64,000 nt of DNA from Octopus vulgaris. Its lineage: Eukaryota. Made by a program: the position numbers and the translations under genes. The notes beneath the pieces were generated by a model. The model did no database searches. It saw only the letters and a program-made list of their open reading frames with translations, and had not been told where the DNA came from. Shown here piece after piece: positions 28,400 to 58,099 of the stretch. The stretch's first letter is position 1, and every line of letters begins with the position of its first letter. The stretch lies in NCBI GenBank assembly GCA_951406725.2, contig OX597829.1:27652001-27716000 (forward strand), read 5' to 3'.

Positions 28400-28690
28400 T
28401 TCTTTTACTTTTTCCAGTCATTGGACTGCGGCCAATGCTGGAGCACCGACCTAAAGGGTTCAGTCAATCAAATAAACTCCACTGCTTATTTGTAAATCTA
28501 GTCCAATTCTATTGGACTATTTTTGCCGAACCTCTCAGCTGCGGTAACGTGAAGTCACGAACACCGGTTATCAAAAGGTGTGAGAAAGCAAAAGTACGCG
28601 CGTGCGCACACACTCGTTCACACACATACCAATCCACTGAAACGGCACTGATTGGTTCAAGAATGTAGTAGAAGACATTTGCGCCTAAGA
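28400..28690 (-). mobile_element. SINE family A (diverged)
   Basis: cagtcattggactgcggcc.atgctggagcaccg...ttttgccgaacc...gtagaagaca. Confidence 0.6.
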
Positions 28691-29463: not shown

Positions 29464-29688
29464 TTAGGCTGTCAAATAAATTCCTTTTTCTTTCTTTTAC
29501 TTGCCACTCCATCGTCATTTGTCTGAAAAGAAGTAAAATTTATTCAAATTTCAAAAGTGGTATACAAAAGTTGTAGAGGAAGAATAGAGGCATAAAACAC
29601 TACGGTAAAAATATTTTTCGTGTTCAGATAACTTTGGAAAGAATTAAAATGAATGGAGGAAAATGAACGAATTTAACTGACCACCTTA
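29464..29688. mobile_element. Tc1/mariner-type MITE (family of 15263 and 41178)
   Basis: ta|ttaggctgtcaaataaattc ... gaatttaactgaccacctta; interior similar to 15263. Confidence 0.65.
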
Positions 29689-30884
29689 TGTGTGTGTGTG
29701 TTTTCTGCACCTCAATATTTAAGATTTTGGTGCCCTAGCTGTAAAAGATATAGGAAAATATAGAAAACAAGGCTGCATAATAGCGGATAGAATTTGTAAC
29801 AGTTGCTGTTTTTTGTCTTTTTTTTGTTGTTGTTTTTGCTCAATTTTCAGAATTAGGTTAGTAAAATTGTATTCAGTAGTTAAATATGAATTCTTGACAT
29901 CATGATGTAGAGATGAATTAGGGCTGTTTGCAGATCTAGCAAAATCTGCCTTATTATATATTGCCTAACATTGTAAATTTTGTGAAATCTGGCAACCTGT
30001 TTATTATTATTATAACACGAGGATGAGTGGAAATATTACCGGAAGTGAAATCTTTCCGTAGAAAGTAATTCCACAGTTCCTCTATGTTTGCTTCGATTAC
30101 AAGACAGGCTTGTTATTAAATTTATTCAATTGTCTGTAAGTTATGTGTTTTAAGTAGCCTACGATCGTGCCTCTATGTTGTTAGTCGAGATAACAACCAA
30201 ATTCTAATAAATTACAACCTACTGGTTTTTTCTAAAAACGGAAGGACACATTACAGAATGTATTCGCATGTGAAAAGACGAGATCGTCATAATTGAAATA
30301 CCTTTGATCATAGATGTAAATCGTGACTAGACAACAAATACGTACAGGTACAAAGTCAATTTTCCGGACACTGATAGTCCGTAAAATTTTATAATCCCAA
30401 CTAATGTACAAATACCCTTACATTTAATTTGATATGCATTTAAATTAGATTATGTTGACCAAGGTGACCACCTCTGGTTCGGAAAAAAAAATTTGTAATC
30501 CGGAAAGGTTCCGGAAAATCGATGTGCGTCTATTATAATTGTTAATACTTTATAAGTCCTTTTTAGTTCAACTCTGCCCTAATCCACAATATCTGCTGCT
30601 AGATCAAAGTGATCATATCATCGATCGTCATAAGAAGTTTCATAGCAGCTGAGGTATGCCATCGGGTTTAAGTTCATCACTGACGTGATATGCCCTTGGA
30701 TTGGGAGGACTCCATTCTCTCTCACTCTCTCAGTTAAGGACTTGTTTGCTTTGAAAGGAAATTGAATAACGAGATTTTTTTTTAATGGTATCTAACCTAC
30801 TCTCCTGTTTTACGTTCCACAACATTTAAGTAAGAGATAGTGTAATAAAGGAAATCAGACATCAAACGTCTTTTTATATTGAGA

Positions 30885-31040
30885 AGGTGTGGCTGTGTGG
30901 TAAAAAGTTTATTTCCCAACCACACGGTTCCGGATTCATTGTCATTGCGTGGTACCTTGGGCAAGTGTCTTCTACTATATTCTCGGGCCGACCAAAGCCT
31001 TGTCAGTGGATTTGGTAGATGAAAACTGAAAGAAACCTGT
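30885..31040 (+). mobile_element. SINE family A, 5' half
   Basis: Matches 19195-19350. Confidence 0.8.
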
Positions 31041-31127
31041 GTTTGAAAAGGTTTAACGAAAGCGCTCACACACTAGAAAAAAAAACTTTTCCGAAAAAGG
31101 TTAGTAACATCCTCATAACATATTTTC

Positions 31128-31472
31128 TGTTTTACATGTTTCAGTCATTTGACTGCGGCCATACTGGAGCACCGCCTTTAGTCGAGCAAATCGACCCCGG
31201 GACTTATTCTTTTGTAAGCCCAGTACTTATTCTATCGGTCTCTTTTGCCGAACCGCTATGTGACGGTGACGTAAACACACCAGCATCGGTTGTCAAGCAA
31301 TGCTAGGGGGACAAGCACACACATACATACATACATACATATACATATATACGGCAGGCTTCTTTCAGTTTCCGTCTACCAAATCCACTCACAAGGCATT
31401 GGTCGGCCGGTGCTATAGCAGAAGACACTTGCCCAAGATGCCACGCAGTGGGACTGAACCCGGAACCATGTG
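31128..31472 (-). mobile_element. SINE family A, young, lacking ~35 bp of its 5' end
   Basis: Near-identical to 3615-3965. Confidence 0.9.
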
Positions 31473-31570
31473 AATAAATTTTACTTCTTTTCAGACAAAT
31501 GACGATGGAGTGGCAAGTAAAAGAAAGAAAAAAGAATTTATTTGACAGCCTAATATTTAATGTCCCTATT
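31471..31570. repeat. 100-bp inverted copy of 29447-29546
   Basis: One mismatch in 100 bp by manual comparison. Confidence 0.9.
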
Positions 31571-31654
31571 TCGTAACATTTTTTAAAAAAATCATCTTCA
31601 CACTTCAAAAACTGTGTTAAGTAATCCTCATAGACTTTCATATATATATATATA

Positions 31655-31883
31655 TATCTGTGTGTCTTTGAGTCTCTGTCTCCCATCGCCACTTGACAAC
31701 CGGTGTTGGTGGGTGTGTATACGTCCCCGTATCTTAGAAGTTCAGCAAAAGAGATCGATAGAATAAGTACCAAGCTTTAAAGAAAAAGGAACTGGGATCG
31801 ATTCGTTGGACTAAAAATCCTTCAAAGCAGTACCCCGGCATGTCCGTAGTCTAATGACCGAAACAAGTAAAAGATAAAAGATA
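31655..31883 (+). mobile_element. SINE family A, 3' half (older subfamily)
   Basis: cttgacaaccggtgttgg..acgtccccgta..gcaaaagaga.cgatagaataagtac..gaaacaagtaaaagata. Confidence 0.75.
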
Positions 31884-31913
31884 AATCGATATTCACCTAT
31901 ATAACTGTAACTG

Positions 31914-32170
31914 TGTGAAGGCACGTAGCCTAGTGGTTAGGCTGTTGCACTCACGATCGCTAGATCGTGGGTTCGATTCCCAGACTGTGCGGCGCGTTGT
32001 GTTCTTGAGCAAAACACTTCGTTTCACATCGCTCCAGTCCCCCTTCGATGAGGGGGGATTGTTGACCTGCTCGTATAGCCAGTGGTGTGGCGTCATATGA
32101 AGGCTAAAACAATGCAAAAGCACATTGTGACCAGCAATGTGTAACACCTAATAGCCTGGTCGGTCACGTG
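31914..32170 (+). mobile_element. SINE family B (head B + tail W)
   Basis: tagcctagtggttagg..gggttcgattccc..gttcttgagcaaaacactt; tail distinct from other copies. Confidence 0.75.
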
Positions 32171-34034
32171 AACTCTAACTTTAATGCGCATACATTATAT
32201 TTCTCAGCCTTGATACTCCTATTAAGGCATCGGAATCGGTTCGTTGTGTTATATATTATGGAAGGGTTTGCATTCGAGGTACTTCGTTGATGAAAGACGT
32301 TACGCACGCACACAAAGTCGAATAGTGTCTGCGGGACTCGGACCCACATCTGTAAACATGTCTTAACCTAATATTTACGCGCTGTTACTTAGAGCATTAT
32401 CTACTTCGAGTTCCACCCTTTAAAACAAATTACTTCACATTCTCCCGAAGTTTCTCAATTCTTATGACGTAAACTATGTCTCTCTCGATACACACACACA
32501 CACACACACATCAAATGGTTTATGAGCATTTGAGTAGGGCAAAACATTCGTTCATGTAGAGATTCTTCCTATTTCCTTGTGTGCCTTCAGCGACGACACC
32601 AAGAGTTTCAACCGAGAATTGCTAACTGTAAGCTAGTCCAAACGTTTGACTTGAACAGTCAACTGTTGTATCGCCGGTGACGCGGCATATATTGCATGAC
32701 GTAGTTTTAGGCGTACTGTCGTCTTCGGAAAAAGATGACATCGTTACGGCTGAAAAAATATTGATCTTGGGCCTAGGCAATCGGAATTGACCTAAAGCTA
32801 AACAACAACAGCACTTAAACCATTGATCATTCGACTTCTAGACGAACACCTTTGTCGATCTTCAAGCCAAATCTTATAAATTTAAATAACTTCTTGCGGC
32901 TCCTTGGATTGGTAATCCATGTATTAACGATTTAAGTTGAAATAAATCAGTTTCAGTATGGTGGGACCCATACGGTATTTTTCTGTACTCTATGGTTAAC
33001 ACTTCAGAAATAAGGATTTCTTATTTTGTGGTTCAGAATAATAAGGATTTTTTCTTGTTTTGTGATTCAGAATAATAAACACCGAGATTTTGTACCATTC
33101 ATGCATGCCTTTGTGGCTAGGGTTTCATGAAAAGTAACCTCAGATTTGACGAGGATGCAACGTTGTCTTATTCTCTGAATATCATCTCACCACACATAAT
33201 TTTTATTAAGTATAATAGCTTCTAGACATTCGTTTAGTTATTGAACCTATCCATCGGTGGTGGGTGATTATCTAGATTAAGATTCGATCTCTAAAATTCT
33301 GTTTCACAGTTATTACGTGTACTACTGTAATGAACATGCAACTTTCATGAAACAAGTAGTTTTTTTTTTATATATTTATTTATTGTGCAGCGGTCAAATG
33401 ACTTGACAGTATCATCTGCGAGCAGCAATTCTCGTGGTTAGTTCATGAAATTTTCATTATATTTGCAATATTACAATATTCATTATATTTACAATATAAA
33501 TGAAGATGGTAAGGATAGATTTGTCAAGTAAGCCGCCTTCAGTGGATTTATCAATAGTTAAGTCAAACTTCGTGGAAACAAAAGGTAAAAATCGAATTAA
33601 ACTCGCAACGTAAGAATATTAATTAGATTAAATGCTGGAAACAATAATTATAACTGATATAAGAAGAACAATGTAGGTAGGAAGTTAGACAAAATATGTA
33701 AGGTGGCGTTAGTGAATGAAAACAGGGAGTAGATATTTTATTACCTTACTTCCCTCTTTATTTTCTTTTATTGGCATCAACATACATACTGGGTGTTCAT
33801 ACTTCATCTTTACAACCGTCACAATTTGTTGCATGTATTAATGTTAAAATCGTCTAGATGTGTTGCGTGCAACCAGTGGAGCCCACGTAGAAGTATTCTG
33901 ATGTTTCTTATAAAACTTTATGTTTTCCAGTAAACTCTGTTGAGTTATCTTTATTTCTCATCTTGTTCTGAATTTTTCAAATTGTTAACGTAATTTACGA
34001 ATACTTTATATTTTGCATAACTTCTCATCTAGAT

Positions 34035-34402
34035 TGCTCACCACATCGTTCCGTATTCAGTCACACTGCGTGGCACCTTGGGCAAGTGTCTTCTATTATA
34101 TCCTCGGTCCGACCAAAGCCTTGCGAGTGGATTTGGTAGACGGAAAGTGAAAGAAGAGAATCGTTTATAGATTTATCTATGTGTGCGTGTCTTTGTGTCT
34201 GTGTTTGTCCCCTACCATTGCTTGACAATCGGTGTTGGTATGTTTACGTCCCCGTGACATAGCGGTTTGGCAAATTGAAACCGATAGAATAAGCACCCGG
34301 TTTAAAAAGGAAATAAGTAATAAGAGTCGATTAGTTCAACTAAAATTCCTCAGGGCGATGCTTCAGTATGGCCGCAATCTAATAATTAAAACAAATAAAA
34401 GT
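34035..34402 (+). mobile_element. SINE family A (diverged)
   Basis: Family A blocks in order. Confidence 0.75.
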
Positions 34403-34460
34403 ATAAATATCATTTACACCATTTTACAGAACTCCAAGCAAATTACAATACTATTTTAAT

Positions 34461-34655
34461 AGCGAGCTGGCAGAATCGTTAGCATGCCCGGCCAAATGCT
34501 TAGCGTCTTTATGTTCAAAGTTCAAATTCCGCCGAGGTCGATTTTGTCTTTCATCATTTCGGAGTCGATAAAATAAATACTAGTTGAGCACTGGAGGTCG
34601 ATCTAATCGACTTAACCTATCTCCTGAAATTGCTGGCCTTGTGCCAAAATTTGGA
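34461..34655 (+). mobile_element. SINE family C
   Basis: gcgagctggcagaatcgttagca...ttcaaattccgccgaggtcga...gctggccttgtgccaaaattt. Confidence 0.8.
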
Positions 34656-36092
34656 AGCAATAATGAAAAGTATTTTACATTGATATAAGGGCTGGATGAA
34701 GTCGTATATTTAAACCTGAATTTGAAAGCGGTGTATGCTTCATTAATCCAAGAGGGACGGTAGAATGCCGACCCCGGTAGTATTTTCACTTTGTGCATAA
34801 CAAAATGCAATCAAATATAGAACCTCACTGCTCACTCGTGTCTATACCCCCACCTCCTGTCTCTACCTAATGAAATTTGCTTTCCTTCAGTCTTATCTCA
34901 CTAAATAACTGGTGCTGATACTTGTTTGTTAGCGATTCAACAGAAATTCGAGCGTCACAAATCGGCTACATTGAAACACAAGTAGAATGCTATTAGTCAT
35001 TTGTGTGCTTCATCTTATTCCAACTGTCAATCGTAGATACACAATTTTTATTTTTACATATCGACAGCGACAGAGATCTAAAATAACTTCTTTTGACAAT
35101 TTTTTTTTGTGGAGATGTGGGCGTTTTTCTCTGATCAAACAGGATGTAAGTAATTGATTGGCTCGATGCAATCGACTAATCCAATGCTTCAGATATAACC
35201 TTCTACTTCCAGTTAATTTCGGGCCATATTCTCTGTGCACCCTAATAAGCAGTAGAGTATTGTATAGAGAGCAGTGTATCAGTCTATACGACGTATTTCT
35301 TCCCTACCTTTTCAGTCTATATGCCTACTGGTTATAGGTGGTGTCGAGGACACATACTGGATATGAACTCTGTAGGGACTTCATAATTATTGTCCTATTC
35401 TTGCAAAGGTTTTGCAAACTCCACCCTCCGAACTCCCAGATCATAACTGATGCACTAAGATCTACGGCTCAGAGACGCTCCAGATGTGACCATACATCCT
35501 TTTATTTTTCTGGATAGTGTATCTAGGACTACATTATCAGTGGATGGTAAGGTGTGAGTTGAGGGAGATTTGGTTTCTATTTCGAACAACCACGCAGAAC
35601 CTTTCTCATAGGATCGCGTTTATACAGTTATTGTTTAGCCCCTAAGTGGTCAGTCTTAATCAAGCTGGTCTGTAATCAAAGGCATTCCATCCGTGATCTC
35701 TCTGTCTCGTATTTATTGGGTTGGATGTGTAGATGGATTTGATGAACATTTGTATATTATCAGTTGTCAACTTAACTGCTACTCGGAGGAGAAGGGGGGA
35801 AACACTGTACCAATCATTACAGGGTACCGATATAGAAAACGTGGACTGGTGGCTGAAATATATCGTTGTAGTAACTTAAAGTAAACCTCATGAAATTTAA
35901 CGACACGTTAGATGCTCAGCATAATAATAACTCTAAGTATACATAAATCTTGCTGTTACGTTACAAAACTAGTGTTCGCAATGAGAAAGAATTCAATTGC
36001 GTAATTAAAACCTGATCTCACATTAGCACATGACCAGATATTGAAAGAAAACCGGATTTGGTGAGTGTTATGACATCCATGCCCTTTCTTAA

Positions 36093-36333
36093 CCCTTTGC
36101 CTGTCCAAAACATTTCCATAAGTTTGTCCTAAATACCCATGCATGATTTCAGACTTTTAGTTTGTTTCAAGCCTTTGTTTCATATGTTCTACGTAAAATA
36201 AAGCTTTACTTTCCTAAGTCCCGAGTTATTCTGGTGATTAAAAAACAAAAAAAAAAGGGGGAACGTGTATCGTGAGGGCCAGAGAAATATTTATTGTGTA
36301 TTATTACATCTGATACACAAGACAGGCAAAGGA
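36093..36333. mobile_element. piggyBac-type MITE
   Basis: TTAA|ccctttgcctgtc ... gacaggcaaagga|TTAA. Confidence 0.75.
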
Positions 36334-37194
36334 TTAAAAAATTACTCATGAAGAATGAAGGCAAAAATTAACAAATATAGTGGTGTCGTCGGCTGATTAT
36401 GCACTTCCTTTACACAATTTCTATCTTCGTTTTTTATTAATGTTAGAAACTGTGAATAGCTTCTTTAGTTAGTTCAGTTGTTACACTGAATTAAAGTGTA
36501 CAATAAGGAGCGTTTACAGAAACTGGGAGTGTGTTGTTAGGCGCTACTATTTACTTAAATCTCGCCGAAGATGACTTTGCTTTACATACATCGTAAGGCA
36601 ATAAAAAGCATGTGCAGGATTAAGTTCTCTAGACCAAATTCCTGTCCCACCCAACCCCTCCTCCAAAGAACTATGGTATTTGAGCTCATCTGACAACAAA
36701 TCATAAAAATGCCCTATATTATTAACATTTCCTGTGATGATTCAGTCTTTGTTGTTGCTGGAATTTCGTAACGTTTTTTTTTTTGCTTTCCTAAATGCTT
36801 CCTGTCAGGTGTTGTTTCACGTCGTATACAGCTAGCTGGCTGACGACGGTTCTGTCTCACGCGTTAAGTTTACTGCACGATAATCTAGAGATCCAACAGT
36901 GTATATCTGCTCCTTCTGGTCAATTTTCTGTTAAACACAATTTATCTCAAAATTGTACTTAATTTATTTCAAAAACGGTTTGTATTAAGTGCATATAATG
37001 AGTGTGTGTGTGTGTGTTACATTTTTGTAAGAAGAGAAGTGATAAGAACTTCGAAGTTTCGGTCTGCAAACTTTCACTGGACTAGCAAGCCTTTCGAATT
37101 AATTATCACCAGTCTTCTTGTAAAAGTATAATAATGTACTTTACGAAAAGTATTGAGTAATCCTTCAATTTAATATAAAATTGTTATAATTCCT

Positions 37195-37345
37195 TAGACT
37201 TCTTTCCTTCTCTAGACCTTTCCTCTTTCTCCTTTCTGACGAAGAGCCATGCTCGAAACGTTATACACACATTTTTTTTCCATCTTATATCGAGCGTCAA
37301 CCTAATACATTTCATGTGTGCGTTTTTTTTTTTTTACTTTTGTTG
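37195..37345 (+). mobile_element. Penelope-like remnant with hammerhead-like core (37236-37262)
   Basis: CTGACGAA-GAGC-cat-GCTC-GAAACGTT, downstream gagcgtcaa, followed by (TCTA)n(TA)n. Confidence 0.55.
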
Positions 37346-37375
37346 TTTTGTTATTCGTAAGTTTCTATTTCTATT

Positions 37376-37428
<53 letters not shown>

Positions 37429-37431
37429 ATC

Positions 37432-37489
<58 letters not shown>

Positions 37490-38351
37490 GTATAGATGTC
37501 ATTCAAATGGTTCTCAGAAAGTTATACGATGTCACACCGGTACACAACTCTGGGCTGTACGGTTCCTCATAGCTGAAACAGCTGTAAGCTAATTAAAAGT
37601 AATTACGTAACTCTTGCTCTTTTATCATTTATTTATTAATACGTAACATTACACTCTGTACAATGAAGTACCAGTATATTGAATTCTGCCAAATGATTGT
37701 TTGTACTGCTATGACTCAGTAGAATCGTTAAGATTTGTGCATGTTATCTAATGTGCAAAGTATTATAATGGCGACAACTGTCGTGATTTATACATTATGT
37801 CGTATAATCTTGTGTGGGCCTTGTTACTTTGGCAGATGGACTACATATAGTTGTGATGACACATCTATCTTAATGCTGGCAATGTCGGCAGCAGTAGCAA
37901 TAGTAGTAGTAGTAGTAATTACATGTCTTTTTGAGCACGCGCGTGCGTGTCTGTTTATATATCTATTGCTATTTGAAGAGATGCAGTAGTTTATATTGTC
38001 ACAATGTTTATTGCAAGTTATTCTTCATAATCTGTTAGTAAGAAAAAAGCGCACAGGGTATCACCGAGTACAGTTTTTACATGAAATTACTACAAAAACA
38101 AGACCAAAAAACACCAAAAAAACTCATTAAGCGTAAGCATGGGTGCGTGGTTAAGAAACTCGCTTTGCGATCACGTGGTTTCAGGTTCATTCCCACTCTT
38201 CAACACCTTAGGTAGTTGTCTTCTACTGCAGTGTTTGTGTCCTTGTAGCTTTGTTTTTACTTTTTTCTGTGACTTATTGGACTGTGGATCCCAATTAGCA
38301 ACATAGCCATCAAAAATTTTTTTTTTTAAAGCCCAAAACATTCTTTTTTAA

Positions 38352-38491
38352 CCCTTCAGCATTTAAACCAATCACATCCGGCCCAAAATATTCTACACCT
38401 TTTGTGTTCAAACTGGAGAAATACATGATTAATTCAAAACAATGTCAATAAATAAACTTGCATTTGACAGAGTAATCTCAATGCTGAAGAG
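38352..38491. mobile_element. short piggyBac-type MITE
   Basis: TTAA|cccttcagcatt ... aatgctgaagag|ctaa. Confidence 0.6.
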
Positions 38492-38837
38492 CTAATGCTA
38501 AAAAATTATGCTACAAGACATAATTTGTGGCTCTTGTTTTTATTTTGTTTTGTAACTCTGAGTTTAACAAATTTTGTGGGGTCTTTCAGGTTGTGGTTTC
38601 AATAGAAATAGAAGCCTAACCCATGAAGAAATTGAATTGATTGCCGCGGCTTGTTAGTTTGATTGAAAGTCGATTTAAAAACGCCTCATTTTATTCCTGC
38701 TTCATGACGCGCTGCTTGGCCAAGTGTGGATATTTCACCTTTGGGATGACATCTCAAAGAGGATTCTTTACAAATATCAAATGCACCTATTTGCTGCAAT
38801 GTTATCCACCCTCTCTCTTTCTCTTTCTCACCTTCTT

Positions 38838-38886
<49 letters not shown>

Positions 38887-38889
38887 CTA

Positions 38890-38939
<50 letters not shown>

Positions 38940-38947
<8 letters not shown>

Positions 38948-39075
38948 AAATTTACAGAAAAACGAAGACAGCTGTTTAAACAACAAGCAGGTGTATTAGT
39001 TTGACGCTCGGGAAGGTGAGAAAGTCCTTTTACGTGTGGATCCTACGCTCTTCAACTGAAAGGAAACGAGAAAAT
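38940..39075 (-). mobile_element. Penelope-like remnant (degenerate core); partial second copy at 39232-39312
   Basis: gtattagtttgacgctcggga matches the family at 37195 and 51900; abuts (TA)n. Confidence 0.45.
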
Positions 39076-40070
39076 TAAAGTTCAAAAAAGTTCAAACGTC
39101 GTGGTGTATTGGAGCGATTTTTCATCAACTGAAGAGTCCAGTGAAATCCATAAGTATATCCAGTAGTAATCCGGGTAGAATGCTGGTAAAGCAGGATAAA
39201 ACTGGTGCGACCACATGAGCGTATAATATATATAGTTGAAATTTTCAAAAAAACAAAACATGAAGACATGTATATAAGCAACAAGTAGATGTATTAGTTT
39301 GACGTTCGGGAAACAGACACACACACTATACAAATGCACACGCTGAAATTTTACACACCTTCCGTTCACCATATTCATTCACAAGGCTTTAGTCAGTCTG
39401 GAGTTATAGTAGAAGACGCCTGTCCATGGTGCTGTGTAGTGGGATTGAGCCCTAAACTACCTGTTTGCAAAATGAGCGTGTCTGTTTAAAAAAAAAATTC
39501 CATAAGTTATCGTTGAGTTAATCATTTTCACGTGGTGTTTACACAACCTTCCCACCTATTAATGAGACTTTGAAAACTAAACTGTATTTCATGAGCGGAC
39601 AAGTCCACCATTCCTGGGATGGGAGTGCGGAGATCGAAAGAGGAACAGGTAGACAAATTAGCATGTTTATTAAATTTGTCCAACACCATGATTATAGAAA
39701 GAATAAATGGATGTAAAAACTGCTTTGTCATCACATGAATAAACAGTGTGGTTGGAGCGGTTACGTTTTGGGTGAGGACACGCAATCGTTTGGTCTGAGA
39801 AGCGCTGGACAAAAAAAGTACTTGTAAAAAGTATGTTTTGATTTTCTTTGTAGGAACCTTAGAGTTTACCGTGTTATATGTTTCTGTCTTCAAACTTGAA
39901 AAGACGGCAAGTAAATAAAAATAAAGTTATCATGTAGTATATTTAAGTAAATCAATCGATTTTAAGGAATGAATATTGAAGCTAATCTTTAGTCAAAATA
40001 TATAAATTTTTCTTTTTGCTTACGGGTAATAATTCTCAGTCGAAAAGAAATTCACGACGTCTGTCCTGCC

Positions 40071-40116
<46 letters not shown>

Positions 40117-40239
40117 TCTCCCCTTTCTTCCTCTCTCATCTCTTTCTCCTTCTCTCCTCTCTCTCTCTCCCCTGAAGATTGTCTTTTGGCTCATTCATTA
40201 TCCAAACTAGCACAAGTCCATACCATCAACGATTGGTAT

Positions 40240-40330
40240 ACAGTAATCCCTCAACTATCATGGGTGTTATGTTCCAAAAAACCCCTGCGATAGGTGAAAA
40301 TCCACCAAGTAGAAACAGTACTGTACTGAA
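40240..40330 (+). mobile_element. Tigger/pogo-like left-end fragment
   Basis: TA|cagtaatccctc...aacccctgcgataggtgaaaatcc; no matching right end seen. Confidence 0.45.
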
Positions 40331-40650
40331 TATTTTTTTTTTTTTTGTTATTTCTATAATTTGTATATATTTATTTTATTATAAATACAAAAGCAACACC
40401 ACGGAGGAATCGACGTAAGCTTAAATAACAAACCACGATATGGCGAGGAATATCTGTATCTGTTTCTGAGTTTTCTATTGGTCTCTCCCTTTCACTAAAC
40501 ACATCACCACATTTTTTTTCCATATAAAACACACACACACACATACACTCGCGCGTGCACACACACACGTGCGCACACACATACACATGTATTTGTGTGT
40601 GTGTGTATATATATATATAGAGAGAGAGATAAAGAGTAAAAGAGCTACAA

Positions 40651-40765
40651 ATAGGTTCATGCGATGAAAACAACTCTGACAGCATTTCGTAACACGTCCT
40701 CAGGATTGTGTGAAGGCATCAGACATGTTAGAAAATGCTGACTTGTTTTCATCGCATGAAACTAT
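40651..40765. repeat. 115-bp imperfect fold-back
   Basis: ttcatgcgatgaaaacaa / ttgttttcatcgcatgaa (18-bp perfect) plus inner cagcattt..taaca.gtc arm. Confidence 0.8.
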
Positions 40766-40889
40766 TAGCCTCTCCTAAAAATATTTACTCCATCACGGAA
40801 CCGTACACTATATATTATTTTATATATTCCTAATATTCAAGAATTCTGAGTTGTATTTTGTCAGCCTTTCCTTATTTTATATCTCTGCA

Positions 40890-40909
40890 ATTACTACTAC
40901 TACTACTAC

Positions 40910-40960
<51 letters not shown>

Positions 40961-41123
40961 TATTATTATTATTATTATTATCATTATTATTATTATTATA
41001 ATTATCATTATTATTACTATTATTATCATTATTATTATCATTATTATTATTATTACTTTTATTATTATCATTATTATTATCATTATTATTATTATTATTA
41101 TTTATCATCATCATTATCATCAT
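40890..41123. repeat. (ATT)n/(ATC)n trinucleotide microsatellite
   Basis: Directly visible. Confidence 0.95.
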
Positions 41124-41177
41124 CAAAAACAACAGACGTTAAGGTAGATGTTAAGTACAGGTATTTTCTTCGTTGTA

Positions 41178-41442
41178 TTAGGTTGTCAGATAAATTCGTT
41201 CGTTTTCTTTCTATTTTTTTTTTTTTTCTTTCATTTTTTTCTGCTTTTCCTACTTGACAATCCATCGTCATATGCCTGAAAAGGTAAAACTCGTACAAAT
41301 TTCAAACACGATAAACAAAAGTTGCAGGGAAAGAATAGAGCTACAAAAACGAAAAAGTAAAAGAACACTGGAAAGGATTAAAATAAATATGACCATAAAA
41401 AAAATAATAATAACGAACGAACGAATTTATCTGACAACCCAA
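41178..41442. mobile_element. Tc1/mariner-type MITE
   Basis: 27-bp TIRs ttaggttgtcagataaattcgttcgtt / aacgaacgaatttatctgacaacccaa (1 mismatch), TA on the left. Confidence 0.8.
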
Positions 41443-41481
41443 TGCATTTTATAACTTATTAATAACTTTACTTGATCAGAG

Positions 41482-41583
41482 TGTTTTAAACTTTTTTTTA
41501 CATTCAATGACCTTTTTATTTTCCTCTGTATTTTTTTTTATTTTTCAGGTAAGTACTTTTGAAGTTTGAAGATGTTGGTAAGA
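41482..41583 (+). other. candidate recursive splice site (ttttcAG|GTAAGT) with a 29-nt cryptic exon 41549-41577 and second donor TTG|GTAAGA
   Basis: 65-nt AG-free pyrimidine-rich tract, branch-like tgAc at 41510, juxtaposed consensus acceptor and donor. Confidence 0.55.
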
Positions 41584-42406
41584 TGACATTTTCTTTTAAT
41601 TGCAAAAAAAAAAAAAAAAAAAGAAAAAAAATTAAGATGCTAAAACAAAACAAAAAAAACAAATAAGTAAGCATTTAATACAGGCGACTGTTTCAAAGTG
41701 TTCAAAAAGACAAATAAGACCGAAAAATGAATGAAGAACAAAAATATTTCTTACAGAAACTGTATAGTGTTGTTAGTCTATGGTTTGCTATTAGCAAACA
41801 TACTTCGAAAATGCGTTATGCTTTTTTAAAAATCTCCATTTTTTAATAATATCCAAAGGTGTGTATGTGTGTATACATTTAGCTTGATGTAGTTATTACG
41901 GCTAGCTCCATGCTGGAGCAGTGCGTGTGTGTGTGTGTGTGTGCATGTGTGTGTGTGTGCGTGCGTGTGTGTAAGTTCCTTTCTTTTTACTGTTTAACAC
42001 GTATCATTTGCAAACAATAGTTCCTTTTGCAACTAAACTGAAGCAACGATGAAATTACCAAATATTTCGCAATTTTTCACTCACTCTCTCTCCTCCCCCG
42101 CTCTCTTTCTCTCTCCTCGTCTTTCGTTCATTCTCTTAATTTTTTTAAAAACCATGTCAGTGACTAGTGTTATTTCGGCATTTGTGTCAAAGACTAGGAT
42201 TTTTTTATTTTACATGTGTCATATACCGAAATATGAGTGCTTCTCCTTGGAGTGGGGGGGAGCATTAAATAGAAATTAATACCGGGGGGGGGGGGCAAAG
42301 CGAATATTAAGGGTAACAGGTGCAATCAGTTGTATTTTTTAATTGAACACACCACTAATGCACTAATAATCTTTTAATTGTGATTAACCTGTCGTTAATC
42401 ATGTTC

Positions 42407-42458
<52 letters not shown>

Positions 42459-42738
42459 CGTGTGTGTGTGTGTTGAGTATTAAATTTTGTTGAGCTGGAG
42501 CTAGATGTCAGGAGGAGGCTTGCGAAAGTCTTAATAGAAGAAAAAAGGGAGATAATTAAGATAAAAGAAAAGGGTCGAGAAGTACTACCTTAATTTCAAG
42601 TTAATTTGTTAGGCCTCACAAGGTTAGTCATTAATATTCTTCCCCCCCCCCCCCACACACACACACAGACACTCACTCACGCCTTGCTAGGATAGGAGGA
42701 GGTCATTGGAATTGAGAGGTGTCATCAATCACAATTAA

Positions 42739-43316
42739 CCTTTTTGCCTGTCCGAAGAATTTTTCGTAAGTTTGTCCTAAACATCCATGGTTTTTTTTTT
42801 GTTTGTTAGCACTCATTTCATACATCTTCTTCTCTCTCTATATAAACGGCAGTTTGTCTGTGTGTGTTTCTGTGTGTCTGGTAGGTTGTACCCTCACCCT
42901 GACCACGGCTTTCAACCGATTCTGATGAAACTTGACACACACATAGCCCAATGTCATAATTCAAAACTAACGCAGCGAAAATTTTGAAAAGTTACCCCAG
43001 TTCTGAAAAAAATCGATAAATTCGACATGGGGTCGAGAATCAGAAACACAAACCACAAACTGTCATGGGGACGCAACTCCACCTTTTTTAACTAAAAAAA
43101 AAATTTACCATCATTTTTTTCCATTTTTTGGCTATAACTCTCTAAAAATGCTTTATAGTTATTTCCCTTACAAACCTGAGCAACGCCGGGCGATACTGCT
43201 AGTTCTGAATAATTATCAAGCTTTCCTTTCATATGTCCATGTTAATCTGGACGTTGAAAAACTTGGGAATGTGTATCAGGGAAATACGACCTGTGTATCA
43301 CAGGACAGGCAACGAG
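42739..43316. mobile_element. piggyBac-type MITE (family of 36093) split by a Helitron
   Basis: TTAA|cctttttgcctgtcc..taagtttgtcctaaa.. and ..ggacaggcaa; the halves are collinear with 36093-36333. Confidence 0.65.
42825..43202 (+). mobile_element. non-autonomous Helitron
   Basis: A|TC ... gagcaacgccgggcgatactgCTAG|T with no TSD; shares its 3' end with 816-1207 and 2545-2910. Confidence 0.85.
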
Positions 43317-43344
43317 TACTGGATTTCGAATATCTATCTATCTG

Positions 43345-43675
43345 ACCCTCCAGCCATCTTTTCCACCCACTTCGCCTAATAATAGGGTCATGAGTTTAGA
43401 GTCCAAGGGAACCTCCTCCGTACGATCCGATCAGAAGCAATTGTCATTAGGCCTCCCAAGCGTGATTAACTGAGACTATGGATATTCTCCAACGATCTTG
43501 TCCTTGGTCGAGCCCTTGGTCTCCTATCATTTGGCTCGGCTTGAAGAATCCGTCTTGCAATCCTTTCCTGAGACATTCTGAAATACATGTCTGTAGTCCC
43601 GGAGTTGTCACCTCCCTATGCGAAGAAGAAGCAGCTCAACCTAGAGAAACCTCCGAGCTACACAACTTCTCGAAT
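43345..43675 (-). mobile_element. RTE-clade LINE 3' fragment (decayed)
   Basis: Minus-strand translation VELLLLRI...RMSQERIARRILQAEPNDRRPRARPRTR; same family as 16270. Confidence 0.7.
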
Positions 43676-44120
43676 ATCATATTTTAAAATCCCTAGTTTC
43701 AACTACAAACAGTCCTGCTAATGTATAAAAAGTGTTATTAAAGTAATATGTACAATGTGTGCGTGAATATGAAATGTGTAACGCAAACCTTATTGCAACA
43801 GTAGTACTTCCATTTGACTCCGCCTCCTAGCCATTGAATTTTGTATTAAGCTTAAAGTTACTGTTGTCATCAACAACACACATTTATGTGTGTGTGTGCG
43901 CGTGCGTACGTGTGTGCGTGTGTGTATATATACACATACATTTATATACGATCAAACAAACTCATTGTAGGTCTGCGTACCTTATCACTTACTGCTTCTC
44001 ATTAAATTCTTACCTGTAAACGGGAAGAATGACTCTGTCCGAAACGTTTGACTTTCCACTCCCCACGGCAAATTCACTATACTGTTTTGCCGATTTTTTC
44101 TCTGTGTGTGTGCATGTGTT

Positions 44121-44171
<51 letters not shown>

Positions 44172-45603
44172 ATTGCAAAAAGCCTAAATAACAAAGAAGC
44201 TAAATTAACTCGCAGAAGAACCATACTGGTTCTTCTTATTAAGACCACACAAAATTTTACTTACAACTTTGGTTTATATCTTAATAGTATTGTCCATTGT
44301 GTAGTGTTAGAAAGTTTCGTTGCGTTTCTGCAGTTTGGCTAGTGATACGATTCGATTCTGGTCGCAGGATTTCGGCTAAAGTGTTTCATACTTTGTAGTA
44401 GTGTGTACATATATTTACTATTGCGAAATAAACGAAAAGTGAATATAACTGATTTTATATGTTCTTTTTTTGCTGACAAAAATAGCTGTTACATAATGTA
44501 ATTGTATCAGATTTAACACACACTCTCGGATCAAGTCACTTACTCAACTCAGAAATAAATAATTTTATTGTTGAAAGAACGGATCTATAAATAAAAAAAG
44601 GAGAAAATATCGCTGAATCAATCAATAAATGATCGATTCAATGCCCTTTTTTGGGGGGAAAAAAAGTCGATTGAAAATGTTGGAATGACACTGCCTTCAT
44701 CATCACCATATACATATAAATGCCATTATATAAATTTAATTAAGTCGTGGAGCTGGCAAAAGCATCAGTGCATCGGACGAAATGCATAGCGGCATTTTTC
44801 CGGCACTTTACGTTCTGCGTTTAAATCTCACCAAGGGCAACTTTTTCTTTCATCTTTTTGAGATGAAAGACCTGAGGTCAATGTAATAAGACTAATCTCT
44901 TTAGCCCTATACCAAAAGTTGAAATTGGGTTGTCATTCCGAACATGTTCATGTAATCTTCAGAATTCATCAGTAAGAAATCAGATGCCTGAATCATCTTG
45001 GTTTAGCCTGACAATTCCCTAATGTGAACCAAGTCGATGAACAACACCAATGAAAATAAGACAAAAGAGGAGTACCATTGCACACTACAAGCAGTGGAAG
45101 TTGGCGCACGAAGGTTCCTCGCAGCCCACATGTGTCAGCTCAGAATCAAAGATCGCAAAAGAACAGCAACGATGAAACGCCTGTTAGAGACAGCTACGAT
45201 GAGCTTAATGTGGCCATGAGCAACGGAAGACGGTAGCTGGAGCTGAAAAAGAATTCTGCAAATCACTACTAAACGGATAATAGGATAAAAATCCAGATTG
45301 AAATAAATCCTCAGTCCAATTTCTTTTAGTAGTCGTCATAGCTAAGCGATATACACCATAGTACAGGGAAATAAGATTACCTAAAGGGTCCAGGTTCAAC
45401 CCTCACCCACCCACTACTCAAGGCAGCGTTTCGGAAACAATAAGAGGAAATTTAGGAGTTATGACCAAGGCAGGCCCGTCTCCCTTAGACTGTCAACAGG
45501 CTAAATCACTTGCTGGCGGGAATCCATCTGAAGGTTTCTCCTGCTGTCAATTGACCTTCTAAGAGAGTTTCCACCAACTATTGTTATTGAATTATTTAAA
45601 ATA

Positions 45604-46146
45604 TTGGGTTGTCCGGAAAGTTCGTGCCGATTTATAGTAGCTTACATTTCGACTTATTTTAGAACATGGTTGAGTCCATAAAATAGGATTTGACTACACC
45701 TCCTTTTAGAGCACAGTTTAAGCTATCTTTTCTTGGAAGAAGGTTTATGTTCCTATAACTTATGTTAATTTCGTAACCCTTTAAAATGGAAGGTAAGAAA
45801 GTTCATTTTCGGTACTTGATGCTTTGGGAACCAGACAAAAATTGCTACAGCTCGGCTGGAATGCGTTACCCCACCCTCCATATTCACCAGATATTGCTCC
45901 TTCGGATTTCCACTTATTCAGGTCTCTGCAGAATAGTGTTAATGGTAAAAATTTCAATTCCTTGGATGACGTAAAAAGACACCTTGATGAATTCTTTGCC
46001 AAGAAACCACCTCAATTCTGGGAAGAGGGTATTTTCAAGTTAAAGGAAAGATGGTTCATATTTGGTTGATTAAAAATGTAATGGCAAGTATTTATTGACC
46101 TTTTTCTTTCCTTTAAAAATCGGCACGAACTTTCCGGTCAACCCAA
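45604..46146 (+). mobile_element. internally deleted mariner transposon
   Basis: TA TSD, 30-bp TIRs (1 mismatch); N-terminus MEGKKVHFRYLMLWE joined out of frame to the C-terminus LGWNALPHPPYSPDIAPSDFHLFRSLQN. Confidence 0.93.
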
Positions 46147-47238
46147 TATTATTTGTTCAGTTGATTTAATTATTTATGCTATTCAAATGAAGTGACATTA
46201 TTTTACCTCTGATTTCATTTTCGATCACTGTTTATGCTAGTCTATCACCCATTGGAGGTTGATAAACTAAATAGTATTATAAGTATATAGTATATATGAA
46301 TAGTGTAATACTTATAGTATATGTAGATAAACAGAGGTGTATAGGGATTGATAAACTAAATACTATATTATATTTTATATTTGTATGTATGTATGTGTAT
46401 GTATGAATGAAAGTATGCATGCATACATGCATGTATGTATGTATTTTTGTATGTATGTATTTTTGTATGTATGTATGCATGTATGTATGTATGTATATTA
46501 TTAATAAGTATATAAATATTATACTGTGTAGATCTATATAGGTATATAGGACATTATGTAAGAAACATACTCACGCCATGATAAAATATTTCAGTATTAT
46601 TGTATTTATGAAATTTAAATGGTATTTAGCATTCATTCATTGTAATTTAAAAAAAAAGGAGAAAACATTTTTTTACTAGTTAAAATTCGCAGCATTTTCT
46701 GCAAGCCTCCCTCCCGCCTTCCTTCATTCCGTGACTATATTTCCGTTCTCCGACATACTAGCAATAAGTTTAGCTATTTCATATTTTAGCATTTTCTTTC
46801 GGGGATTTATCTCTCTGTTAGCGATATCAAAAAGAGTGCATTTTGAACCAAAGAGTGCATTTGAGAGGTTCTCTCATGGTATCTACCGCAGTATAATTAG
46901 TTCCAACAGAACATCCACGTATTTAAGTGGGGGATAAATATTACTTCTTTCGCTCTCTTTTTTTTTTTAATTCTAAAGTGCCTAAATGTTGTGGGTGAAG
47001 AAAACCCTGCAAGTCTGTATTAGGAAAGAAATCCCTCAATCTGTCTGTGTGTGTGTGTGTGTTTTCATAAACACAGAACATAAACAGTTACAATTCTGAG
47101 GCAATGCTGGATATCTGTTTCTTATTAACCAATAATATTATATCTTCTTCATCGTAGAAAAAGAAAGGGGGAAGAAGTAGCAGCATATATATATATATTT
47201 TTTTTCCTTCTTCCTTTCCTTTTGAAAACACCAACAGC

Positions 47239-47273
<35 letters not shown>

Positions 47274-47751
47274 CCACAGCAACAGCAAGAGCAAATTCCG
47301 TGGTAATTTTTTTTTTTGCCTTTTTTTTCTTTCTTTTTTTTGGCAGGTGTACTGGTATTACTACTGCATCACAATAAAACTAATCTATCGCTCACATGTT
47401 CTCTATTCGTTTTGTTGTTTATCTTGTTGTTGTTGCTGTTGTTGTTGTAGTAGTTGTTGTTGTTGTTGCTTTTATGACTGACATGTGATGTAAATTATTG
47501 CGTGTTTTACTATTAAGATACAAGATAACAAAAGGTAATAATGACAGTAAGCACATTAATCCCCACTACAGAGGAAACAGACACACGCACATTCGTATAG
47601 AGTGTGTGCTCGAGCGCATGTGTGTGTGTGTGTCCGTGTCCGTGCATTTGTGTTTGTGTACATCAAAAGCCTACATTTTGTGTGCTGTGAGCTTAGATGA
47701 ACTCTGCACACCTACTAACGATAGTAAATTCATTATTATAAATGCTAACGT

Positions 47752-48728
47752 AGGCGCGGGCATGTCCTTCTATGTGTAGTTTAATGAGCTCACTTTCCAA
47801 CCACGTGGTTTCGAGTTCAGTCCCCATTCTGTGACACTGTGGACAAGTGTCTCTCCAGCTATATCCCCGGGCGCGAAATTTTTTTTCCTACGAGAATTCC
47901 AGACCCCAGTTATGAACTCATTTGCATACAGCCAATCAGAGCTCAGCTATCAAACAGATTTATGAGCGCAAAACAAGTGAGGGGCGATAAGTTAAGGTCA
48001 CTTGGGTAATGAATGACCATGTTTCTTTTCTCTTTTAATAATGCTTGTTGTTCTTGTTTCAACCATGCGTAGTTATTTGTATTGTTGTTTACTTTCTAAA
48101 ACAGCATGGGTAGAGGGTTGCTAGCACATCACCCTCTACCCACATTTTTCCCCATCCACATCTTCACCATATGGGGCCCTAACAAAATCCGATTATAGGT
48201 ATAGATGCAAATCTATCTAATTACTTTCACCTAAAATTAGGCATAACTTGGTGATCGGTCGATTTACAATACCGTCTTGAGTTTACTTGGTAGAGTGTGT
48301 TTGTTAACTTGACAGGGGGAAGGTGAGCTCTGATTAGTTGTATGCAAATGAGTTCATTGCTGGGGTCCGGAACTCTCGTGGGAAAAAATTTCGCGCCACG
48401 GATCGACCAATGTTTTGTGAGTGAATCTGGTAGACGGAAGCTGTATGAAAAAAGCCTATCGTCTGTATGTGTGTGTGTGTGTGTGCGTGCACGCGCGCGT
48501 TCGTGCATTTTGCGTTTCTCCCTTACAACATTGCTTCACAATCTGTGCTGGTTTATTTACTTCCCCATGACATAGCGGTCCTGCAAAAGGAATCGGTAAA
48601 ATAAATAGCGGGCTCTAAAATGAAAAGAAAAAGGTATTGTGATCGATTCGTTCGATTAAAATCCTTCAATACGGTGCCCCAGCATAGCCGCAATCTAATG
48701 ACTGAAACAAGTAAAAGATAAAAAGATG
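47752..48728 (+). mobile_element. SINE family A (old) split by a MITE
   Basis: Head to ctatatcccc (47868) resumes at gatcgaccaatg..gtgagtgaatctggtagacggaa (48401). Confidence 0.75.
47870..48397. mobile_element. MITE with ~75-bp TIRs (possibly PIF/Harbinger-like)
   Basis: ggcgcgaaattttt..cgaga.ttcc.gaccccag..atgaactcatttgcataca.c.aatcagagctca is mirrored at 48324-48397; possible 3-bp TSD ccg/acg. Confidence 0.85.
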
Positions 48729-48978
48729 ATAAAAATCTCACTCCTTACTGCACTTCTTTTTTCTGTCCCTTATTATGAAATATTGTGGCGGGTATTCTGA
48801 GACAGCACATCACACACACACACACCATAGAAACTAAGTTGTATCGGAACTGATACGATATGATGACGAGCCGGCGATTAAAATGATGACCGAAAATGAG
48901 CGATATTTCATCAGCACACAAATTATACTCATTTTTTACATCGAAATGCCTTATGTATCCTTTTAAAATCTTTTATCG

Positions 48979-49147
48979 TTACCTCCGCCTTAATATTTGA
49001 GAGCGGTCGGGTTCATTTTTAGTATTCTTGTTTGTGAGATCAATCGAGTTTATTTCAGATATTCCCATTTTCAAAATCAACTCTGGCTAATCGTTGAGAT
49101 CACGGTATTGCCTTGGCGGAGGTTTGCGCTCTCAGAGTGCTCCTGTT
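48979..49147 (+). mobile_element. Helentron-associated (HINE/DINE-1-like) short element
   Basis: Subterminal IRs acctccgcc (48981-48989) / ggcggaggt (49115-49123), then hairpin gcgctct-c-agagtgc and a T-rich end. Confidence 0.6.
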
Positions 49148-49599
49148 TGTTTTTTTCTTTTAGTTATTTAAACCATTTAACTGCAGCCATCCTTGAGCAG
49201 TGCCTTCAAGGGTTTAGTCAAGCGAACCTACCCTAGTGTTTATTTTAAATCTGGTATATTTATTCTGGTGGTCTAGTTTGATGAACCGCTAAGTTCAAGA
49301 CGCAAATAAATTTCCACCAACTGTCAAGCGATGGCAGTGATCAAACACAAACACGCGCGTGCGCGCACACACATGTACGATGATGATGTTGATGATGATA
49401 TTTTCTACATAAGGCGGTGTCCCAACATGGCCGCAGTCAAAATGACTAAAACAAATAAGACTTTAAAAAAAGGCTTTGATTCTGTAAACGAGCAATCTGG
49501 TCTGTTTATTTTAATGACCTATTAATGTAAACAGTAAATTTCTTTGCGCGATAAGACGCTCAGCAAGAAATGGAAACAAAATTGAAGGAAGAAGAAAAG

Positions 49600-49600
49600 C

Positions 49601-49633
<33 letters not shown>

Positions 49634-49727
49634 TAATAATAATAATGATCATGATAACAATAATAATGATGATCATGATCATGATAACAATAATAATAAT
49701 AATAATAATAATGATGATCATGATAAC

Positions 49728-49774
<47 letters not shown>

Positions 49775-49810
49775 TGATCATGATAACAATAATAATAATA
49801 ATAATAATAA
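49600..49810. repeat. (AAT)n microsatellite with repeated atgatcatgataac interruptions
   Basis: Directly visible. Confidence 0.95.
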
Positions 49811-50367
49811 ATGCCCTGATGCAGTACCAGGCAGTGGCTCTCATGGCTTCCCATCTTAACTGATTGGAAGTGTTATCATGTGCATTTTTTATGTCTTGGT
49901 ATAAAGGATGGGCTACAGCAAATATTCTGCTCAATACCACAGATTTGCTTGTCAGTTGTTTGACCATAACCAGTTGAGCATGTTCCTTAGTGGCTGACGA
50001 TGTGTGCATCCCTGATCACAAGCAGAAGTAGTAGGGAAGCATCATAGCCATGTGTTGAGAGGAATTCTTTGGAGTTTGAATAATTCACCTCTGGAGACAT
50101 GGGTGTTTCGTACAACATCCTTAAACAACCCTTATTCAAGAACCTTTTGAGCGGGATGGGCTACTCGACCTGAAGAAAATTCTAACTGGGCCCCACCTGC
50201 AAGGTCATGCGCTGTTTATCTTGTATGAGATCACCATGTCACGCACATATGGTTGTGATGCATGTGCCTAGTGTACCCTTATCAGACGGGTAGTCATGAT
50301 GGGTATACTGGGTTTCGTATATTGTACCTCAGTGTCACTTTGATGGCATGCACTGCTCTCTCACTCA
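49811..50367. mobile_element. ~560-bp higher-GC insert bounded on both sides by (AAT)n; probable microsatellite-targeted element
   Basis: Sharp compositional boundaries inside an (AAT)n array; no clear ORF or TIR. Confidence 0.45.
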
Positions 50368-50373
50368 ATAATA

Positions 50374-50409
<36 letters not shown>

Positions 50410-50573
50410 GAATAAATAACAATCCTTTCTACTATATATACAAGGCCTGAAGTGTTAGATGGCAGGCAGGCTAGTCGATTACAACGAACCCAGTACTCAA
50501 CTAATTCTTGTTTTATCGACCCCGATTCTGCCACCTCACCGTCTTAATCATGATGACGACGATGGTGGTGATG

Positions 50574-50661
<88 letters not shown>

Positions 50662-50697
50662 ATAGTAGTAATAGTAGGAGTAGCAGCAGCAGTAGCG

Positions 50698-50742
<45 letters not shown>
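50574..50742. repeat. (TAG)n microsatellite
   Basis: Directly visible. Confidence 0.95.
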
Positions 50743-51614
50743 ATAAACACGGAGTACACGCGATAATAGAAGTGTCTGGATGTAGGTCAAGTTCTAATTT
50801 TAGATCCAAAATCTTTTCGATGTATTAATGGACGTATCGTTGTTTTGAAGTAGTGTTTTGATGTACGCTTGTACTTGTTTCGCTTTGGTTTTTAATCCCA
50901 TATTTTTCCAGCCGTCTTTTGGTGTGTTAAGAGTTTTCCTAAAATACCATGAAAAACTCTTTTCATTTCCCTGTGAATCTCACATCAGCTAAGCAAACTC
51001 TTCCATAACATTTCGCTTGAGCTAGGCTTAATTTGCTACGGCGAAAAATTCATTCAATACATACATAGAAGCACACAAATATCGATTACTATATTAGTTT
51101 CTTAAAATATTTCTTGAAATGTGGTATCATCCCTCAGAACAATCAGGAATTTCATTCAATTCTATAGTTTGACTAAATTTTATAATTTCTAACTTCTGTG
51201 CGCAATGTTACGTTTGAGAAGTTTTTGTGACTCCTTCGTAGAAGGAGGCTTCATCAATACTGCCAAAAAATTTTCAGATGTGAAATTTGAGTGCGTATTA
51301 GTTAAAAACATGACATTCACCTTCATTTTAGATACACTTTTCTTTCTTATTCTTTCTCGTTGTTGTTGTTATTGTTGTTTCTCAAACAACATATAATATT
51401 CCTCTGTCTAGAAGAGAAACTACGTCCGGTCTAAGTTTCCATTAACTCTATCTCTAGCGTTCGTATTTTTTTATAACGATTTACAATACCGTTTAACTAA
51501 CCGCTGTTGCCCTTTCCCGTTTATTTACTGCTTGGATGTTCAAGTTTAAGATGTTTAGACTTTAATAGTAGCATCACTATTGGTTTACTCTGTGTGTGTG
51601 CGTGTGATAGTGTG

Positions 51615-51677
<63 letters not shown>

Positions 51678-51899
51678 GTACACACATTTGTTTAGAGCAA
51701 GTACCTTTGAATGCGTTCACGATTTATGGATATTGTAAATAATATTTCATAATATCCTATAGATGTGAAAATGTCATCGCAAATAAACATGTGGTATGCG
51801 GAAGTGTATGTCGTAATACATTAATAAAGTCTAAAATTTTCCATCCGCAAGTCATTTTCGTTATTACTATCTATCTATGTATATATATATATATATGTA

Positions 51900-52220
51900 T
51901 ATAGTTAATCCAAACATGAACAAGCAAGGAAAAACAACGCGAGGACATGGAATAAGTACAGTGCTATTGGACGCTCAGGAAAGGAAAGAAAAGAAAGAGG
52001 ATTTCACGTTTCGAGCGGAGCTCTTTGTCAGAAATATAGAAAAAGTCCAAAGAAGGGAAGACGGAAACAATTCAAGTAAACGAATAAAAACAGACAACAT
52101 GAGGATGTGCATATGAAACATGTTACTTGACGCTTGGTGAAAAGAGAGAGTTTTTGACGTTTTGAGCATAGCTCTTCGTCGGAAGGGAGAAAGGGAAAAG
52201 TCCGAAGAAGGAAAAGAAAT
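51900..52220 (-). mobile_element. two tandem Penelope-like remnants, each with a hammerhead-like core (52006-52031, 52156-52182)
   Basis: First unit is the reverse complement of 624-810; cores ctgacaaagagctccgctcgaaacgt and ccgacgaagagctatgctcaaaacgtc. Confidence 0.55.
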
Positions 52221-54736: not shown

Positions 54737-54790
<54 letters not shown>

Positions 54791-55440: not shown

Positions 55441-55455
55441 ATAATGATATAGATA

Positions 55456-56129: not shown

Positions 56130-56130
56130 T

Positions 56131-56176
<46 letters not shown>

Positions 56177-56329: not shown

Positions 56330-56361
<32 letters not shown>

Positions 56362-58035: not shown

Positions 58036-58099
<64 letters not shown>

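Follow-up and report, generated by a model that had tools for sequence, protein, structure and literature searches.

A tandem acceptor and donor at positions 41548/41549 of the window (the whole 64-kb stretch of Octopus vulgaris DNA analysed here, G000:C16:27,652,001-27,716,000 of a 2.8-Gb genome) is, with a probability of roughly 0.84, a recursive splice site, or ratchet point, in the first intron of KDM2. The first splicing step is found in RNA contigs that join the distal first exon of the gene, exon 1a, to position 41549, and we infer the second step, in which the donor regenerated at the junction would be used. The 327-kb intron is thus likely to be removed in steps.

The host gene lies on the + strand, and the window falls wholly within intron 1 of its distal-promoter isoform, in agreement with the giant + strand intron proposed in the original prediction. 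Exon 1a ends 40.6 kb ahead of the window and exon 2 starts 222 kb beyond it. The gene features that frame the window are as follows.

Window 1..64000, + strand: segment of KDM2 intron 1, which spans G000:C16:27,611,379-27,938,220 (326,842 nt; placed by tblastn of P0018/P0001)
L104:3882, L104:8901 and L105:1650: proximal alternative KDM2 first exons, which bypass the giant intron (one is a weak 45% match)

The downstream exons encode JmjC, CXXC, PHD and F-box domains, the JmjC piece scoring under the Pfam cut-off, and an O. vulgaris KDM2A-like protein is 100% identical to a downstream exon. In isoform X2 of O. bimaculoides (P0018), 13 codons of exon 1a are followed directly by exon 2 in phase 0, and the same direct join, lacking the 29-nt segment that follows the site, is present in four Haliotis species and in the chiton Liolophura. 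The occurrence of this join in O. bimaculoides, Haliotis and Liolophura indicates that it is a conserved product. The recorded O. vulgaris KDM2 protein begins at a proximal first exon; the three proximal first exons lie no more than 9 kb from exon 2, downstream of both recursive sites proposed here, and the one giving Met-Cys-Thr also starts the cuttlefish protein P0029. No host-gene exon was recognisable in the window by ORF lists and composition-based exon scans, which returned repeats and transposon pieces only. The 13-codon exon 1a likewise escaped ORF and exon scans and was revealed only by the loose end of an RNA contig. An Orai channel gene on the minus strand (L002:9619-9999, L005:2445-2690) is placed head to head with exon 1a, 26.6 kb apart; human ORAI1 and KDM2B are probably neighbours as well.

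The elements around the site itself are all on the + strand.

41482..41546, + strand: acceptor tract of 65 nt, free of AG and 78% pyrimidine
41508..41511, + strand: weak candidate branch point TGAC (A at 41510), the sole branch-like match in the tract
41547..41548, + strand: used 3' splice site AG, which receives exon 1a in the X2 and X8 contigs
41549..41556, + strand: putative regenerated donor TTG/GTAAGTAC, 8/11 consensus matches
41549..41577, + strand: cryptic (RS) exon of 29 nt, missing from mature exon 1a-exon 2 proteins
41572..41577, + strand: ATG TTG, in frame with exon 2 upon inclusion, heading no listed protein
41578..41585, + strand: the cryptic exon's own donor TTG/GTAAGATG, 6/11 matches, unspliced in both contigs
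41604..41622, + strand: genomic A19 run, likely an internal oligo-dT priming site

The original prediction described an AG-free tract ending in ttttcAG/GTAAGT with a second donor, TTG/GTAAGA, 29 nt further on, and each of these elements is confirmed: the AG at 41547-41548 is followed by GTAAGT at 41549-41554, and the 29-nt segment runs up to the TTG/GTAAGA donor at 41578. This YAG/GTAAGT is the sole instance on either strand of the 64-kb window. The site has a G/GTAAG donor at +29, and among intron windows drawn at random 1.2% contain such a donor within 85 nt. Other elements of the prediction carry less weight than they were given. The branch-like tgAc is present as TGAC, but it is a weak match and does not conform to YTRAY. 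Stops do fall in all three frames of the 29-nt segment (41567-69, 41550-52 and 41560-62), but they are weak evidence because GTAAGT itself forces one stop, and random 29-mers beginning with GTAAGT have stops in every frame in 13.5% of cases. Only frame 0 matters, and it contains a stop: read in phase 0 after exon 1a, the segment gives six codons and then TGA. Similarly, the two TGAAG words are present and rare (0.025% by chance), but the comparison was chosen post hoc and the doubling is a 7-nt tandem repeat, which leaves it little weight; both the all-frame stops and the doubled TGAAG were dropped as independent support. The ATG TTG at 41572-41577 begins two bases past the frame-0 stop and reads in frame into exon 2.

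Repeats are found elsewhere in the window. Positions 41245-41443 give contig matches of 85-95% with long loose ends in three runs, which come from other loci of a repeat, and this stretch is probably a dispersed, transcribed repeat. Frames at 45797-46069 and 53794-54653 resemble decayed pieces of mariner-type transposase, and 12968-13414 is a tandem repeat with 2.5 copies of a 182-nt unit.

Use of the acceptor is documented by sequencing contigs. The RNA search listed 24 runs, all as contigs, four of which (X1, X2, X8 and X9) were compared with positions 41105-41920, contig matching having masked 41593-41674 as repeat. The junction from exon 1a to 41548/41549 is present in two of the four runs, from two studies and under two organism labels, as a 115-nt contig of depth 4.85 in X2 (record 10; organism A, study P2) and an 83-nt contig of depth 5.9 in X8 (record 12; organism B, study P5). 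Both contigs match 41548-41592 without a mismatch, so that 45 nt across the site are identical in organism labels A and B (two labels only), and both carry the same 27-29 nt of extra sequence ahead of 41548. This extra sequence matches L007:9349-9377, the end of exon 1a, exactly and is single-copy in the genome; the base after L007:9377 is a G, which is common to the acceptor, and GTAGGT comes next. The junction skips 82,170 nt, the distance from the end of exon 1a to the site, with GT..AG ends, and such a join across 82 kb implies spliced RNA, although none of the runs is registered as an RNA library. The original prediction had envisaged reads joining an upstream exon to 41549, and the X2 and X8 contigs contain this junction and continue into the intron.

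Both junction contigs run unspliced across the donor at 41577/41578 into the downstream intron, so that they represent an intermediate from which the upstream segment has gone and to which the downstream intron is still attached. The X8 contig has 11 letters beyond 41592, which by length arithmetic is the distance to the A19 run; this run at 41604 probably primed reverse transcription and so let the intermediate be captured. We rejected a reading in which GTAAGT simply closes a U-rich exon lying upstream, since the contigs join exon 1a at 41549 and not ahead of it. X1 and X9 have no junction contig, and their missing cover at the site carries no weight. No inclusion junction of the 29 nt appears among the contig matches displayed, which cover all but three loose ends and two pieces; a short match could escape there, and rare forms are dropped in contig assembly. 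In the accessible text of the fly studies, exon-to-site junctions are taken as direct evidence of recursive splicing, with high confidence kept for sites in saw-tooth patterns (Pai et al., PMC6110457), and lariats were added as evidence by Duff et al. (10.1101/006163).

A second acceptor joined to GTAAGT, of the same build, is found in the same intron at G000:C16:27,880,511 (L099:4490-4560), 187 kb downstream of the first. Its cryptic exon is 38 nt long, has a stop in frame 0 and ends in TTG/GTAAGT, with no ATG. YAG/GTRAG occurs 16 times in the whole intron, both strands counted, and only two instances have at least 14 pyrimidines in the upstream 20 nt; these two are both on the sense strand, both have GTAAGT and both are followed by TTG/GTAAG downstream. 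The two sites split intron 1 into segments of 82,170, 186,963 and 57,709 nt. That they are duplicates of each other was considered and is unsupported (P about 0.13).

Donors were scored by their matches, out of 11, to the donor consensus. At the first site the regenerated donor scores 8/11 and the cryptic exon's donor 6/11, both with exonic TTG, and the native donor of exon 1a scores 7/11. At the second site the corresponding scores are 8 and 7, a one-base advantage for the regenerated donor. In the mechanism that we propose, the donor at 41578 would define the 29-nt cryptic exon, within which the acceptor at 41548 would be recognised, and step 1 would join exon 1a to 41549 with the downstream intron retained, as seen in the contigs. 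TTG/GTAAGTAC would then beat TTG/GTAAGATG, and the 29 nt would be removed with the next segment. The same step would follow at the second site, 187 kb on, with its 38-nt cryptic exon, and exon 1a would end up joined straight to exon 2, as in the conserved product. Were the 29 nt included by accident, the frame of exon 1a would run on for six codons and then stop. A donor-competition model of this kind is supported in flies, where donor strength fails to explain every case (accessible text of PMC8605326). Speaking against recursion at this site are the weak candidate branch point and the cryptic exon's donor, which matches at 6/9, below the 7-of-9 cut used genome-wide, the G/GTRAG test that it passes having been chosen afterwards. 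Moreover, the 82- and 187-kb segments are longer than any reported for flies, where the maximum is 63.6 kb (10.1101/006163), so that further sites may have been missed.

A further point against recursion is that an ordinary cassette exon with its downstream intron still in place gives the same intermediate. On this reading, which we consider unlikely, the 29 nt would be included through the donor at 41578 and act as either a poison exon or a start switch; in the switch version, exon 1a would become part of a 19-codon upstream ORF and KDM2 would restart at ATG TTG. The original prediction offered a start exon ending in ATG TTG as its alternative, and this part of it stands to the extent that the two codons, two bases past the frame-0 stop, keep the reading frame of exon 2, in a gene with several very short alternative N-termini. 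However, no sequence among the 41 listed for KDM2 begins with Met-Leu ahead of exon 2 (these were drawn from four KDM2 clusters, with 24 in two cephalopod clusters, and including many fragments), and the short N-termini come from the proximal first exons no more than 9 kb from exon 2. Both contigs are unbroken over 41577/41578, an argument that is weak to the extent that contigs drop rare forms. The cassette reading also meets a second site that has no ATG, and it leaves unexplained why the best donor of the region stands at the start of the exon. Expressed RS-exons occur in flies too (accessible text of PMC8605326), and a minor included form would fit recursion as well.

We regard as very unlikely a cryptic last exon, in which RNA joining exon 1a to 41549 would be cleaved and polyadenylated near 41604 and distal KDM2 truncated. 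The length of the X8 contig is compatible with an end at the A run, but that run is genomic and could prime oligo-dT alone, and neither AATAAA nor ATTAAA occurs between 41549 and 42263, the first after the site being at 42264. The X9 contig lies further downstream, at 41675-41861 (though it could be DNA), and a last exon would leave the same-strand series of such sites across the genome unexplained.

This series was defined by the strict pattern Y12-N-YAG-GTAAGT, which has 154 matches in the 2.8-Gb genome versus 43 for the reversed pattern. The acceptor tract at 41548 holds an A, and the site therefore falls outside the 154. Controls with GTAACT and GTAATT in the same context number 89 (243 for GTAABT minus 154), and scaling them by background counts (188 to 537, taken over both strands of 464 kb of C16) gives an expectation of about 31. 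The strict sites are thus in 4.9-fold excess (154 versus about 31), with about 120 above chance. A GVAAGT control was set aside, its counts having been swamped by one repeat; by eye, the C1-C4 rows outside repeats number 18 and indicate a similar enrichment of about 7-fold. The pattern TTTYYTYYCAGGTAANT, whose matches were dominated by a repeated GTAAAT form, was also left out of the counts.

The strict sites are clustered on one strand. For the 98 of 154 sites used in this test (100 listed, two C14 rows dropped where the listing ended; lengths of C9-C12 taken as lower bounds), all 12 pairs of neighbours less than 300 kb apart are on the same strand, where 1.8 pairs are expected and 12 were reached in none of 5000 simulations. 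Within 1 Mb, 19 of 22 pairs from the same 98 sites share a strand. The control set (31 of 89) has one pair closer than 300 kb. Together with the five sites in a single 515-kb intron described below, the motif excess and the one-strand pairs bear out the enrichment on the sense strand of long introns that the original prediction anticipated. Same-strand clusters of strict sites occur at the following places.

C13:56.7-57.8 Mb, - strand: cluster of strict sites
C9:104.96-105.62 Mb, + strand: cluster of strict sites
C8:15.1, 21.8 and 50.9 Mb; C6:97.1 Mb; C5:10.7 Mb; C3:9.6 Mb: further clusters of strict sites, each on one strand

Strict sites also tend to be followed by a second donor. We compared the first 70 sites, four of them copies of one repeat retained in the counts, with 31 of the 89 controls, asking for a donor of at least 7/9 at +20 to +100. 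Such a donor follows 31/70 sites, 4/31 controls and 200/1260 background windows (Fisher P=0.0016). At a cut-off of at least 8/9 the difference (13/70 versus 2/31) is not significant (P=0.097), and in the post hoc test for G/GTRAG the counts are 19/70 sites and 0/31 controls, with 1.9% in the background. Among the 41/79 sites that have a donor of at least 7/9, cryptic exons have a median length of 57 nt. We also observe a dispersed repeat family (L040, L042, L060 and L138), with copies about 80% identical, which already contains an acceptor with GTAAGT and is a possible source of new sites.

Splicing noise at the KDM2 site, namely a chance strong acceptor in an AT-rich intron that is occasionally used and functionless, would fit the roughly 31 of 154 strict sites expected by chance, the four repeat copies among the 70 examined and the low contig depth (4.85 and 5.9), but is made most improbable by a junction whose sequence is identical between two studies and between two organism labels, and by the twin site in the same intron, both sites then having a G/GTAAG donor at a chance of 1.2% each.

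The largest group of sites within one gene is found on C13, in a DUF7044-family gene orthologous to O. sinensis LOC115218431. Coding exon 1 of this gene ends at 4,341,582 and the next coding exon begins at 4,856,824, and the intervening intron of about 515 kb (4,341,583-4,856,823; L213, L184-L188, L198) contains five sense-strand strict sites versus 0.014 expected. All five begin with GTAAGTAC, as does the native donor of the gene; 4/72 other sites do so. Their cryptic exons are 45-55 nt long and mutually similar, with 8 of 10 pairs above the 95th percentile of unrelated pairs, and a resemblance of this type is absent from control segments at +100 and from the other clusters, KDM2 and seven more. 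Duplication is one reading of this likeness and shared constraint another, and the pattern was noticed before it was tested. Taken genome-wide, it is quite probable that octopus has a fly-like system of recursive splicing, with well over 100 ratchet points with cryptic exons that subdivide introns of 300-500 kb, in much longer strides than in flies. That such a system also includes stepping stones multiplied by copying within a growing intron, in at least one gene, is a tentative and rather doubtful extension. If true, copying within introns would be a way in which recursive sites arise as introns expand.

The KDM2 site probably represents a mechanism known from flies and mammals, in a phylum without a described case in the literature searched. 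Our search, which covered mostly openly accessible journals and main texts, found no description of recursive splicing in molluscs. A used cephalopod site would add a third major bilaterian lineage to recursive splicing and would make it possible to test whether recursion goes back to the common ancestor of bilaterians or re-evolves wherever introns grow huge. Cephalopods have large genomes, with introns swollen by repeats. The analysis also supplies a concrete list of sites for total-RNA data (154 strict sites, two sites in KDM2 and five in one C13 intron), and it bears on annotation, in which such cryptic exons can pass for microexons or start exons.

Among known systems, the accessible text of three sources describes Drosophila ratchet points with cryptic RS-exons in Ubx, kuz, Bx and luna (10.1101/006163, PMC8605326, PMC6110457). 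The octopus site shares with them a tandem acceptor and donor within a long intron, an annotated donor joined to an unannotated AG/GT, several sites per intron, and a short cryptic exon (29 nt at the KDM2 site, with a median of 57 nt for the octopus class, and about 50 nt in flies) that has a weaker closing donor and is out of frame or contains a stop. It differs in scale, the KDM2 intron being 327 kb with segments of 58-187 kb, whereas fly introns are 11-133 kb with segments of 2.6-63.6 kb (accessible text of 10.1101/006163). It also differs in its host, a mollusc, in a cryptic exon that ends with an in-frame ATG TTG, and in its documentation: saw-tooth patterns and lariats have been shown in flies, whereas the octopus site is documented by junction contigs. 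Poison cassette exons and cryptic last exons similarly place a short stop-bearing exon in a long first intron, but they are either included through a donor of their own or terminate the transcript, outcomes that were not seen here, and they need not begin with GTAAGT. The proposed order of events, in which an exon is first defined and the regenerated and downstream donors then compete, with inclusion leading to a premature stop, is that of mammalian RS-exons (PMC8605326, PMC5126111). These two sources, which relay Sibley 2015 and Blazquez 2018, accept just nine mammalian sites as definitive among those that are intronic and fully suppressed. With about 120 strict sites above chance, octopus stands nearer to flies, which have more than 500, than to mammals.
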